This document shows positions 6,281 to 58,361 of a DNA stretch of 64,000 nucleotides, one piece after another. The notes under the pieces were generated by a model. It worked only from the letters and a program-made list of their open reading frames with translations, searched no databases and was not told the origin of the DNA. The stretch is from Sarcina sp. (GTDB lineage: Bacteria; Bacillota; Clostridia; Clostridiales; Clostridiaceae): NCBI GenBank assembly GCA_051656585.1, contig JBOGCE010000009.1, positions 49,020 to 113,019 on the forward strand, in the 5' to 3' direction. The stretch's first letter is position 1. Each line of letters begins with the position of its first letter. The translations under genes were made by a program, and so were the position numbers.

Positions 6281-6308
6281 AAAAAGGAGTGCATTTGCAC
6301 TCCTTTTT
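6281..6308. terminator. Bidirectional intrinsic terminator (DUF975 / leuS)
   Basis: aaaaaggagtgca-tt-tgcactccttttt. Confidence 0.85.
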
Positions 6309-8758
6309 TATTTTACTACTATATTTACAAGTCTACCTTTGATAACTATTACTTTTACAATGTTTTTATCAGCTGTAGCTTCTTTAATTTTTTCATCTTC
6401 TAAAGCAGCTGCTTTAATAGATTCTTCATCAAGACCAGAAGCTATCATTATTTTATTTTTAATTTTACCATTAACTTGTATAGCTATTTCAACCTCATCT
6501 TTTACAAGACAAGTTGTATCAAATACAGGCCATTCTGTATTGAATACTGAGTAAGCATTTCCAAGTAAGTTCCATTGTTCTTCAGCAAAGTGAGGAGCAA
6601 ATGGAGCAAGTAATTTAATATAATCACTTATTGTATCTTTTAAGAATGAAAGATTCATTTCTTTTTCTTGTGTATATTTAGAAATAGCATTTATAAATTC
6701 CATCATTCTAGCAATTGCAGTGTTGAATTGAAGTTTATCAGCATCAGTTCCAACAGCTTTTATAGTGTTATGTCTCCAGTAGTTAAGTTCTTTTTCTACC
6801 TTATCCATAGTAGTTTTGTTGTTTTCATTTTTTTCTATAGCTTCTCTTGCTATATCAAGATTTCTTTCGATTTTTTCTACAAATCTATGAACTGATTTGA
6901 TACCATCATCACTCCAAGCACCACCTTCAACATAGGCGAAACCAAACATTAAGTACATTCTGAATACATCAGCACCATATTCTTTAATGTAATCATCAGG
7001 TGATATAGTATTTCCTTTTGATTTACTCATTTTAAGACCATCTGGACCAAGTATTAATCCTTGGTGAGTAAGTGATTTAAATGGTTCATCAAAGTTTAAA
7101 TATCCCATATCTCTTAATGCTTTAGTTACGAATCTAGCATAAAGTAAATGCATGCAAGCATGTTCAGGACCACCTACATATTTATCTACAGGAAGTAACT
7201 TATTTATTAAGTCTCTATTAAATGGTTCTTTAGAATTTTTGTTATCTGGATATCTTAAGTAATACCATGATGAGCAAACAAAAGTATCAAGAGTATCAGT
7301 TTCTCTTTTTGCTGGTTTTCCACAACAAGGACATGTAGTATTTACAAATTCTTCAGATTTTGCAAGTGGTGATTTACCATCTGGTGCAAACTCAACGTCA
7401 TATGGAAGTTTTACAGGTAAATCTTTTTCAGGAACAGGTACAGTTCCACAATCATCACAGTAGATTATTGGAATTGGTGCACCCCAGTATCTTTGTCTAG
7501 AAACTAACCAATCACGAAGTCTATAATTTACTTTTTCTTCTCCAAGATTATTTTTAGCAAGAGATTCAACTATTTTAACTTTAGCCTGAGCTGTAGTTAA
7601 TCCGTCAAATTCTCCAGAATTGATTAAGATACCATGTTCACAGAATGGTAAATCTGTATTTTCACCATTATTAGGAGAAATAACTCTTTCTATTGGTAAA
7701 TCAAATTTTTGTGCAAATGCAAAATCTCTTTCGTCATGAGCAGGTACAGCCATAACAGCTCCTGTTCCATAAGTAGCAAGTACATAGTCACCTATCCAAA
7801 TAGGAACTTCTTTTTTGCTTATAGGATGGATTGCATAAGCACCAGAGAATACTCCAGTTTTTTCTCTAGAAATAGATTGTCTTTCAATATCAGATTGTTT
7901 TTTTGCTTCTTCTTTATAGTTTTCAACAGATGCTTTGTAGGCATCAGTTGTTATTTGATCAACTAATGGATTTTCAGGTGCTAAAACTACATAAGTAACA
8001 CCACAAAGTGTATCAACTCTTGTTGTAAATACATCAAAACTTAAATCGCTATCTTTAACTTTGAAAGTAACTTGTGAACCTGTTGATTTTCCAATCCAGT
8101 GTTTTTGCATTGAAACAGTTTTTTCAGGCCAATCAAGACCATCTAATTTCTCAAGAAGTTCATCAGCATAGTTAGTTATTTTAAAGAACCATTGAGTAAG
8201 ATCTTTTTTAGTAACTTCTGAATCACATCTTTCACATGCACTATCAATAACTTGCTCATTAGCAAGAACTGTTTGACATGAAGGACACCAGTTTACAGGA
8301 GCTTTCTTTCTGTAAGCTAAGTCATTCTTTAAAAGTTCAAGGAACAACCACTGTGTCCATCTATAGTAATCTTCTGAACAAGTTACAAGTGTGTTTTCCC
8401 AGTTAAACATAGCTCCCATAGCACGAAGTTGCTCCTGCATAGTTTCTATATTTTTAAATGTAGAGTCACTTGGATGAATTCCAGTTTTTATAGCAAAGTT
8501 TTCAGCTGGAAGTCCAAATGCATCAAATCCCATAGGCTGGAATACATTATATCCCTGCATTCTTTTAAGTCTAGCCCATGAATCAACTGGTCCGTAGTTA
8601 AACCAGTGTCCAGCATGAAGTTGACTACCTGATGGATAAGAAAACATCTCTAATACATAAAGTTTTTCTTTTTCGCTATTTGGATCAAATTTATAAAGTT
8701 CAGTTTCAGTCCATTTTTTTTGCCATTTTTTATCTATGGCAGTACTATAATTTCCCAT
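6308..8758 (-). CDS. leuS: Leucine--tRNA ligase
   Basis: [18 protein letters not shown] (HIGH-like) and KMSKS motifs, editing domain; ATG at 8758 follows GGAGG RBS. Confidence 0.97.
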
Positions 8759-8788
8759 TAAAAAGCCTCCTAAATAATATAATAAATA

Positions 8789-9005
8789 AAAAAAGCCCAT
8801 CATCTCAATTAAGAGACGATGGGAATCGTGGTACCACTCTTATTAGAAAATAAAATATTATTTTCTCACTCAAATGCCATAAGGGAGCAGACCCTATGTG
8901 TTTTGCACATATGCTCGTAGGTAAGTTCATATTTTTATAACACTGTGTCACAGCAAACCACAATTCTCTGAAGATATAAAAAATACTAATACTCCTAGTC
9001 AATGC
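8789..9005 (-). promoter_or_regulatory. T-box riboswitch, Leu specifier (CUU)
   Basis: Minus strand: stem I with AGAGA/GCTGTGA elements and GAA-CTT specifier (8923-8925); T-box AGAGTGGTACCACG (8827-8840); terminator cccatcgtctc/gagatgatggg plus T-run. Confidence 0.9.
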
Positions 9006-9187
9006 TTTTCATATTTATTTGTTAATATATGAAATTATATATTATTTGTGTCTTAATAGTCAAGAAAATCTATTTAGAAAATTTGATCTATATTTTTATT
9101 CACAAATTTAAAAAAAATAGAATAAAATAAGAGTGATTAATATTAACTATAGTAAAATGAGAATTTAGCATTTATACTAAATAGTGC

Positions 9188-56169: not shown

Positions 56170-56553
56170 ATGAAAGATATAATAAATACAACAAAGGCAC
56201 CTGGAGCTATAGGACCTTATTCACAAGCTACAGGAGTAGGAAGATTAGTTTTCGTATCAGGACAACTTCCTATAGATATGGCTACTGGTGAATTAGTTAA
56301 CGAAATTAAAGGAGCAACTAAAGCATCATTAGATAATGTTAAAGCTATCTTAGAAGAAGCTGGAACATCAATGGATAATGTTTTAAAAACAACAGTTCTT
56401 TTAAAAGATATTAACGATTTTGCAGCAGTAAATGAAGTTTATGGACAATACTTTACTAAAGACTGTCCAGCAAGAGCTTGTTTCGCAGTAGGAAAACTTC
56501 CTAAAGATGCGTTAGTAGAAATCGAAGTTATTGCTTGTAGAGAAAAACACTAA
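56170..56553 (+). CDS. ridA: RidA family enamine/imine deaminase
   Basis: [32 protein letters not shown]. Confidence 0.93.
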
Positions 56554-56620
56554 TTTTTATTTGAAATTAGACTTATTTTTAGATTACTTTTAACCTTATA
56601 ATTGTTAATCTTTTTATATG

Positions 56621-56934
56621 AAGGGAGGGACATACATTAGCCCTTTCTTGAAAGGGATACAACTAGTGTATGGGTGCACGTATGTGTGGTTTAGAAGAAA
56701 TTAAATTTAGTAGATATGGTAATTTTCTAATCTACCAGCATTTTTATCTGCAATTGCTGTAGTTGAAAAATAGCTGAAGATTAGGAAAGTTAATATCGAT
56801 TTCGGTATTGTGATTTAAAATTATTAAATTTTTAAATCAATATCATAGTTACTAAATAAAAGATACAATTTAAAGTTTTAAATCAAATACTGATTGAAGT
56901 ATATAAATGACTTTCCTAAAAATAATTTTAGGAG
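56621..56934 (+). ncRNA. Candidate structured cis-regulatory leader of the PnuC-like gene
   Basis: Mutually exclusive pairings 56723-56733/56779-56789, 56781-56790/56910-56919 and 56914-56921/56926-56933 (the last occludes the SD). Confidence 0.45.
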
Positions 56935-56943
56935 ATGGAATTT

Positions 56944-57771
56944 ATGTTTAATTGGTTTAAAAAATTTACACCGTTTCAAAAATGGTTTTTTTGTGTATTT
57001 TTAGTTGGAGCAATTGTGTCACTTTTTCTTCCGTTGGCAACGGGAGCTTCATGGGCAACTGTATTTGAATTTACAGCTGTGTTAGGAATATTATCTACAA
57101 TATCAGGAATATTAAACTCTATATATGTTTGTAGAGCAGAAATTATTTTATATTTTTGGTGGGGAGCAAACACAGTGTTTTTTGGAATACAATGTATACC
57201 AGAACATTTATATTCAACTTTTTTCTTAAATATAGTTATAGTTTTACCAATAATAGTTTGGGGATACTATAAATGGCGTAAAGATATTAAGAAAGCTCAA
57301 GAAATTGGAGAAATGAAAGAAGATGACACAGTACAAATAAGAAAATTTAATGCAAAACAATGGGTTTTAGCAGCTGTTATTTTTATAGTAGCATGGGCTG
57401 CTTATTGCGTATTCGCAATATACTTCCCAGATATTGTAGCTCTATTTGGAATAAAAATCCCTATGGATGCTAACTTTATTTTAGATTCTCTTATTGCAGT
57501 AGGAACAGCTTATGCAGTAATATTAACAGGTACTCGTAATGTAGAAAACTGGTATTTCTGGTTTATTGTTAACATTGTAGGTATAGGTTTATTCTTAGAT
57601 CAACTTATAAAATCAATAGTTGCTGGTAATATGAGTATCATGCAATTAGGTGGTGTAATTATGTATGTTCAATACTTAGTATCTAATATATATGGATATT
57701 GGTGTTGGCTTAATCTTAGAAAGAAACAAAAAGGCAAAGGTAAACAAGGCGATAAACAAGTTGCAGCTTAA
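56944..57771 (+). CDS. PnuC-family (nicotinamide riboside transporter-like) membrane transporter
   Basis: Trp-rich TM segments; LY...L, GYYKW, LDSL and ENWYFW motifs; ATG 56944 fits the AGGAG spacing. Confidence 0.8.
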   Translation: MFNWFKKFTPFQKWFFCVFLVGAIVSLFLPLATGASWATVFEFTAVLGILSTISGILNSIYVCRAEIILYFWWGANTVFFGIQCIPEHLYSTFFLNIVIVLPIIVWGYYKWRKDIKKAQEIGEMKEDDTVQIRKFNAKQWVLAAVIFIVAWAAYCVFAIYFPDIVALFGIKIPMDANFILDSLIAVGTAYAVILTGTRNVENWYFWFIVNIVGIGLFLDQLIKSIVAGNMSIMQLGGVIMYVQYLVSNIYGYWCWLNLRKKQKGKGKQGDKQVAA

Positions 57772-57778
57772 TAAAAAT

Positions 57779-57810
57779 TCTATAGTGTAATTTTAAAATT
57801 ACACTATAGA
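57779..57810. terminator. Perfect 32-bp palindrome after the PnuC-like gene (probable terminator)
   Basis: tctatagtgtaattttaaaattacactataga. Confidence 0.65.
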
Positions 57811-58061
57811 ATTAAAGATAACAATAAAAAAATAAGTTTTAATTTTATAAATTTTCATTTTAATTCTAAAATTTATAGCAAAGGGAGGGACTTGTCTTTG
57901 AGAATGTTCCGATCCTAAACCGCGTAATCTTTATTTGTTTTAGAAACAACTTATAGTTTTGAAATCATTTCTTGAAGTTATACAAGTAAATTATTAAAAT
58001 CTAAGTTTCTCATTTTTAAAAATAACGGTTTACCATCAGGAGTTGAAGACAGGGGTGCTAA

Positions 58062-58361
58062 ATGAGTGGTTTACATGAATTTGGAACAATAATAAATGCT
58101 ATAGGAGGAATTCTATTAGCATATGGATATTTACCACATATCTATGATCTTATCAAAACTAAGAAAAAAGGCTCTAACAGCTTACAATACTGGGTTATTA
58201 TGACCTTTGGTATTTTCTGTATATCTATAAATATGTTTATTCAAGGAATACCGTTAGTTCAACAAATTACACAAATATTTAACGTTGGATTAGCATTTAT
58301 TTCAACAGTAGTATTAATTTACTATATTGCAAAAGAGAAAAGAACTTTAGCGAATAAATAA
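58062..58361 (+). CDS. PQ-loop/SemiSWEET-like half-size transporter
   Basis: Three TM segments; YLPHIYDLIKTK...SLQYW. Confidence 0.8.
   Translation: MSGLHEFGTIINAIGGILLAYGYLPHIYDLIKTKKKGSNSLQYWVIMTFGIFCISINMFIQGIPLVQQITQIFNVGLAFISTVVLIYYIAKEKRTLANK

Follow-up and report, generated by a model that had tools for sequence, protein, structure and literature searches.

The leader of a PnuC-like transporter gene (pnuC) in 64,000 nt of Sarcina sp. DNA (hereafter the window; G+C = 28.7%) is, judged from its own sequence and those of its relatives, a real and conserved RNA switch able to hide or expose the pnuC Shine-Dalgarno (SD) sequence. We propose, with moderate confidence, that it is an ermC-like translational attenuator driven by a leader ORF, which is in turn headed by a start module; this module is an uncatalogued RNA family, absent from Rfam 15. 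The helices of the leader go beyond chance, their layout recurs in relatives, hairpin P1 of the module covaries, and the leader ORF is kept open.

The surrounding region is an anaerobic purine-catabolism cluster of gut Clostridium/Sarcina. Peptidase M20, amidohydrolase, DHODH-like flavoprotein and RidA genes precede the PnuC-like gene, and two 99-aa PQ-loop genes, a gene for a 285-aa protein and SsnA-like amidohydrolase genes follow it. MAGs of Sarcina sp. carry an annotation of a PnuC-like protein with identical sequence, and the sequencing runs holding the window are fish-gut DNA metagenomes only, with no RNA-seq runs among them. The features of the gene and of the switch in its leader are as follows.

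56682..56762, plus strand: leader ORF of 26 codons, MCGLEEIKFSRYGNFLIYQHFYLQLL*, starting at the module AUG
56723..56733, plus strand: segment A, ttttctaatct, the anti-B element inside the leader ORF (codons 14-18), 11 bp with B
56778..56793, plus strand: segment B, SD-like (AGAUUAGGAAAGUUAA) with no ORF behind it, pairing with A or C
56910..56921, plus strand: segment C, the anti-SD arm, which forms an SD hairpin in 5/5 leaders by differing sequences
56926..56939, plus strand: PnuC ribosome-binding site, with UUUUAGGA as the 3' arm of the masking hairpin and AGGAGAUGAU as the extended SD
56944..57771, plus strand: PnuC-like transporter gene, 275 aa from ATG 56944 (Pfam NMN_transporter, E = 2.7e-24)

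The ATG at 56944, nine bases past AGGAG, is a plausible start codon for the PnuC-like gene; the ATG at 56935 was ruled out as the pnuC start because it abuts the SD. The string RGGAGAUGAU precedes the start codon in all five PnuC-like genes (window 56930-56946, L001, L003, L007 and L010). It constitutes an extended SD with a single mismatch to the complement of the 16S tail, and it also makes an ATG that lies in frame three codons before the real pnuC start and that gene callers choose (ORF 56935). Directly after the pnuC stop codon is a perfect 17-bp palindromic hairpin (57776-57813), which likely acts as a terminator between pnuC and the transcription unit of the PQ-loop genes.

The four mutually exclusive helices described in a first-pass annotation of this DNA are all present, with one base to correct: A pairs with agattaggaaa at 56778-56788 (11 bp, one G.U) and not at 56779-56789. 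The B core, ttaggaaagt (56781-56790), pairs perfectly over 10 bp with actttcctaa of C (56910-56919), and tcctaaaa of C (56914-56921) pairs with ttttagga (56926-56933), by which AGGA of the SD AGGAG (56930-56934) is covered. The 353-nt leader folds at -93.7 kcal/mol vs -61.9 +/- 5.1 in shuffles (z = -6.2, 0/100 as good), and its minimum-energy fold in the window contains both A:B and the C:SD hairpin. Of all upstream sequence, C pairs best with B (-14.9 kcal/mol, reached by 0/300 dinucleotide shuffles), and inside the leader ORF B pairs best with A, in the window and likewise in L003, L007 and L010. Some of the B/C complementarity comes from composition alone, the two segments being SD-like and anti-SD-like. 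When the leader ORF was masked in folding, the C:SD hairpin persisted in the window with no shift to B:C, so switching would have to be kinetic. No intrinsic terminator was predicted in the leader. B was also considered as a true ribosome-binding site and dropped, there being no conserved start codon after it.

We compared the leader with those of the only four further clusters of PnuC-like proteins that we found, at 88% (L001), 60% (L003-6), 55% (L007-9) and 52% (L010) identity. All four adjoin xanthine dehydrogenase (XDH), adenine deaminase or the same RidA operon, and every PnuC-like and PQ-loop relative found lies inside a purine-catabolism cluster. This constant company of purine enzymes suggests that the substrate of the PnuC-like protein is a purine or nucleoside and not nicotinamide riboside; in none of the loci did NAD-salvage genes turn up near it. 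The leaders of the relatives are 330-800 nt long, and the comparison comprises about four independent PnuC-type leaders. In a partner scan, C was defined solely as the SD-pairing arm and its best upstream partner was then sought. That partner was the homologous SD-like B in 5/5 leaders, and the fraction of shuffles reaching the B:C pairing was 0.000 in the window, 0.010 in L001, 0.017 in L007, 0.15 in L010 and 0.20 in L003, i.e., significant in three of the five and weaker in L003 and L010. The C:SD hairpin is found in all five leaders, as is an A element inside the leader ORF, where the best partner of B sits mid-ORF or later; A:B in L001 is no better than shuffles (0.66). The distance from B to C ranges from 120 to 400 nt, reaching about 400 nt in L007 and L010. 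L003, in which B overlaps the stop codon of the leader ORF, fits the relay poorly.

The covariation on which the first-pass reading hinged is present in these leaders, which retain the SD-masking hairpin, the SD-like B and the A element with compensating changes. B is retained in L007 and L010 with the sequence UAGGAGGAAGUUUAAU and in L001 with AGAUUAGGAGAGUUUAA. One B:C pair goes from A-U to G-C between the window and L001, by A-to-G in B and U-to-C in C, and A:B is still paired through G.U. The central claim of that annotation, a switch-like leader able to mask or free the PnuC SD, is thus borne out by helices that beat chance and by a layout recurring in four relatives' leaders.

The order of genes around these leaders differs among relatives: pnuC, adenine deaminase, PQ1-PQ2 in L003 (4978-7472); XDH, PQ1-PQ2, leader, pnuC in L010 (2412-3046); and pnuC then XDH, beside a transposase, in L007 (5589-8819). 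Upstream of the module, L007 (3235-3320) and L010 (3135-3218) have a perfect SD (AAAGGAGGTGA) followed by an ATG-TAA start-stop mini-ORF, and they share a covarying hairpin (TCTAAC...GTTAGA in L007, TTCTAACG...CGTTAGAA in L010), which implies that in these species the transcript begins well upstream of the module.

The leader ORF is preceded by GGGUG in the window, and the module AUG opens an ORF in all five PnuC-type leaders (26, 26, 38, 32 and 44 codons). The probability of such openness by chance, with about 11% of triplets being stops, is 0.056, 0.009, 0.023 and 0.008 in the four distinct leaders, the product being about 1e-7, although two of them, L007 and L010, are related. Each leader ORF runs through 25-43 sense codons before its stop, and stops appear in the other two frames after 2-31 codons. 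By these figures the leader ORF is conserved as an open frame; it is probably translated, and its translation would open A:B. The peptides are common only in M-(C/S)-G, and no conserved arrest peptide was recognisable among the five. Since A lies inside a conserved-open ORF, the immediate input to the relay would be translation of the ORF and not a ligand acting on A.

In ermC-type attenuation, segment 2 is set free when a ribosome occupies segment 1, and it then draws segment 3 off the SD. The elements of such a system can be read in the pnuC leader: a leader ORF with an initiation region and four exclusive segments, with A inside the ORF and the SD in segment 4. We propose that the module sets how often ribosomes initiate on the leader ORF (56682-56762). 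With the ORF untranslated, A would pair with B, leaving C free to fold on the pnuC SD, and pnuC would be silent. Ribosomes translating or pausing in the ORF would cover A and free B to pair with C, so that the SD would be exposed and pnuC translated. As in the ermC and cat attenuators, a short leader ORF has its own start region and includes segment 1 (A), the 1:2 and 3:4 helices hide a downstream SD that 2:3 frees, and control is translational, not by termination. The pnuC leader differs from them in lacking a conserved arrest peptide (M-(C/S)-G only) and any antibiotic link, in its B-to-C distance of 120-400 nt and in the purine-catabolism genes concerned; moreover, the start of its leader ORF is embedded in a conserved module, and the module is more likely to be the regulated step. 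Translational attenuation is the better model for the pnuC leader, whose relay would add to it a module-headed leader ORF.

The start module heads all five PnuC leaders and consists of a 5' flank, hairpin P1 and then GGUGC, 3-4 nt and AUG-NGY-GG. The window has two copies, the second overlying the ATG that starts the first PQ-loop gene.

56620..56630, plus strand: module 5' flank, GAAGGGAGGGA, with two invariant GGG tracts, nearly invariant in 14 copies
56631..56672, plus strand: hairpin P1, CATACATTAG (56631-56640) with CTAGTGTATG (56663-56672), enclosing an inner hairpin CCCTTT/AAAGGG
56673..56689, plus strand: module 3' flank, GGTGC, ACGT, ATG (56682, the leader ORF start) and TGT GG
57880..58069, plus strand: second module copy, with flank at 57880-90, P1 at 57891-99 with 58045-53, GGTGC at 58054-58 and ATG at 58062

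The 11-mer of the 5' flank recurs at 57880-57890 in the second copy, and GGUGY-N3-4-AUG-NGY-GG is invariant in intact copies. Because the interiors differ so much that MAFFT could not align whole modules, P1 was tested on trimmed sequences, made of the flanks plus 9 nt from either end of the intervening sequence. Across 14 copies, two of them minimal, 99.2% of cells are paired and 7/9 pairs have changed on both sides; 0/500 shuffles match this, and slid controls are 41-64% paired. The interior of P1 ranges from a 14-nt loop to 140 nt. In the minimal copies (L021 and L022), P1 is a plain stem of 8-9 bp with a short loop, the other copies having 40-140 nt inside, and the core of the module is therefore the two flanks and P1. 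P1 takes the place of the upstream helix acatac/gtatgt proposed in the first-pass annotation: the leader ORF has its start codon within gtatgt (56680-56685), and acatac/gtatgt is at most an alternative pairing.

A further eight lineages (L011, L012, L015, L017, L019, L021, L022 and L025) have the module on the PQ-loop start codon, so that about ten lineages overall have PQ-loop start codons bearing it; the type of Clostridium massiliamazoniense, a cultured species, is among the lineages with a PQ-type module. The leader ORFs of L007 and L010 start with MSGLH, as the PQ-loop protein does, which suggests that the module and the first codons of the PQ-loop gene were copied together; we propose that it came from the adjacent PQ-loop gene to the front of pnuC. 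A covariance-model search of the window and 12 homologous loci yielded no further copies, and a strict-pattern scan of the JGI metagenome collection returned a single chance match without P1 (L024), which indicates that the motif is rare there.

The long PQ-type copies (57880-58064 and those of L011, L012, L015, L017, L019 and L025) have an extra domain in P1, AUGUUCYGAUCCUARGCC ... GGUUUAYYAUUAGG, which neither the minimal nor the PnuC-type copies have. Covariation is uninformative either way, the helices of the domain being almost invariable; it could be an added sensor domain. A PurBox-like DNA site was also considered in the PQ leader and dropped because it is missing from the minimal copies.

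Two PQ copies have decayed, at L014 2890-3003 (L014 being close to L012) and L010 2290-2415. The G's of the 5' flank, of the 3' flank and of the codon-3 GG have been lost or damaged together in both, and one of the two also lacks the G of codon 2. All four G tracts are degraded in L014, where P1 is broken, and three of four in the PQ copy of L010, where a 7-bp stem remains. Covariance-model scores are 10-13 bits for the decayed copies and 45-72 bits for intact copies matched in one piece. The module has decayed as a unit in these two lineages. The proteins of the genes with a decayed module start with MNCLHEF and MSNIQQF and not with MSGLHEF, and the sole intact module of L010 is the one before the PnuC leader ORF.

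We regard the module as a putative regulated initiation site that probably answers a purine-related signal. Candidates for what it senses are a purine-related ligand, the ribosome (through SD mimicry) or a protein, and, of a purine-related ligand and a purely constitutive role, the former is somewhat likelier. An alternative to the attenuator is a classical metabolite riboswitch, in which purine or nucleoside binding by an aptamer (within about 56620-56745) would directly decide A:B, the ORF being incidental. In its favour, the 5' module is conserved and structured, the SD-masking part is a clear expression platform and the setting is purine catabolism. However, we scanned it with the 4227 models of Rfam 15 (cmscan) and obtained no match for it at the gathering score and none even at E <= 10 in 56400-58200; 10 homologous loci likewise gave none at E <= 1, in keeping with the earlier description of the leader as unclassified. 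The stretch from the module to A conserves only the open frame in distant leaders, the conserved part in L021 and L022 amounts to two G-rich flanks and a plain hairpin, and neither a junction nor a pocket-forming Watson-Crick structure is evident in these two copies, the 5' flank being without a cis partner. We therefore consider a metabolite riboswitch unlikely.

The leader is like the NAD+-II (pnuC motif), TPP and FMN riboswitches in being a structured leader that stands before a Pnu-family transporter and acts on the ribosome-binding site, but it differs from them in conserved sequence and architecture, and none of these models matched it. With the purine (guanine/adenine/xanthine) riboswitches (RF00167) and the NMT1 motif it shares a purine-metabolism setting and possibly a purine-related ligand, but it has neither a three-way junction nor, at any threshold, a model match. 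The fragments GATATGG and TCTACC, previously read as purine-riboswitch-like, lie inside the leader ORF, with no match to the purine-riboswitch model at E <= 10. The riboswitch reading of the first-pass annotation thus survives as a conserved SD-masking switch; its purine-riboswitch fragments are unsupported, and the leader-ORF relay is preferred. A literature search for a riboswitch tied to PQ-loop or purine-catabolism genes returned nothing relevant.

The purine-rich flanks bring in a second alternative, that the module handles ribosomes constitutively. Nine nucleotides of the 5' flank, GAAGGGAGG, are complementary to CCUCCUUUC, the 16S 3' tail, with one G.U and with no start codon at SD spacing, and GGA before P1 and GGUG after it give GGAGGUG if read across the base of the helix. 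Such SD-like flanks suggest a STAB-SD-like or hairpin-bridged SD element, which would recruit the 30S subunit and thereby stabilise the mRNA or boost initiation, with the helices only coupling pnuC to the ORF or reflecting AT-rich noise. A predicted promoter (TTTATA-17-TAAAAT) that ends at 57872, just before the second module, would make the PQ copy 5'-terminal on its transcript, and known STAB-SD elements bind the 30S subunit and block RNase J1 (PMC4113751). The module resembles the cry3A STAB-SD and the bridged SD of phage T4 genes 25 and 38 in having an upstream SD-like purine tract without its own start codon and a hairpin between tract and AUG that would restore normal spacing. It differs from them in its second SD-like tract (GGUG) after the hairpin, in the conserved G-Y-GG after the AUG, in its restriction to two transporter gene families and in its decay as a unit. 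In L003, moreover, the 5' flank variant GAGGGCAGGGA breaks the continuous SD complementarity and keeps the two GGG tracts, and the invariant G-Y-GG after the AUG, for which an SD role has no explanation, is lost with the flanks in decayed copies; taken together, these two observations fit a role of the G tracts' own better than an SD role. The module of L007 and L010 is not at the 5' end, conserved leader sequence lying upstream of it, and a constant input would give no reason for an elaborate A/B/C relay. A constitutive role is, in our judgment, rather unlikely, though less so than a metabolite riboswitch.

The action of the G tracts might be mediated by a protein, by a ligand pocket or by a quadruplex. 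A trans-acting factor, either an RNA-binding protein of a purine regulon or a small RNA, could bind the G-rich flanks held together by P1 and so control the embedded AUG. Conserved single-stranded purine tracts with no conserved cis partner found for the 5' flank, a variable hairpin interior of the sort typical of protein-bound hairpins and the restriction of the module to one gene cluster are all compatible with such a factor. Yet no candidate gene for an RNA-binding protein was seen beside the module in any locus, and the tracts are unlike the known site patterns of TRAP, CsrA and PyrR; we consider a trans-acting factor quite improbable.

The most speculative reading of the module, and a very improbable one, is a natural RNA G-quadruplex switch. 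The pattern GGG-N1-2-GGG-[P1]-GGG(U)G-N8-10-G-Y-GG is invariant in intact copies, the fourth tract being GG or a bulged G-Y-GG. The tracts of the quadruplex would be GGG, GGG, GGG(U)G and G-Y-GG, of which the last two flank the SD and the AUG. A tetrad stack that has P1 for a loop, and also a bulge or a missing guanine, would bury the start site, and a planar purine of the pathway (guanine, xanthine or urate) could stack on it or fill the vacancy, tuning translation of the purine transporters. A quadruplex would account for invariance being limited to the G tracts and the helix base, for the retention of two GGG runs in L003 via paired substitutions and for the loss of the G's of codons 2-3 along with the flanks in decayed copies. 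A literature search for a natural G-quadruplex riboswitch returned nothing relevant.

If the proposed attenuator is correct, the start module represents a new cis-regulatory RNA family absent from Rfam 15, and the leader has an unusual two-stage design, in which a sensor-like start module acts through a leader ORF and an ermC-like four-segment relay on a distant ribosome-binding site. It would also be an example of a regulatory start region copied from one gene and rewired to another. The shared module would mark two unstudied transporter families, the PnuC-like carrier and the paired half-size PQ-loop proteins, as co-regulated in the anaerobic purine/urate breakdown of gut Clostridiaceae, a pathway of current interest for host urate levels. 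The minimal module, at about 60 nt, is small enough for direct biochemistry.

Elsewhere in the window, a T-box leader unrelated to the pnuC leader (Rfam RF00230, 131 bits) lies at 8809-9011 on the minus strand, upstream of an 831-aa ORF at 6308-8803 on the same strand.
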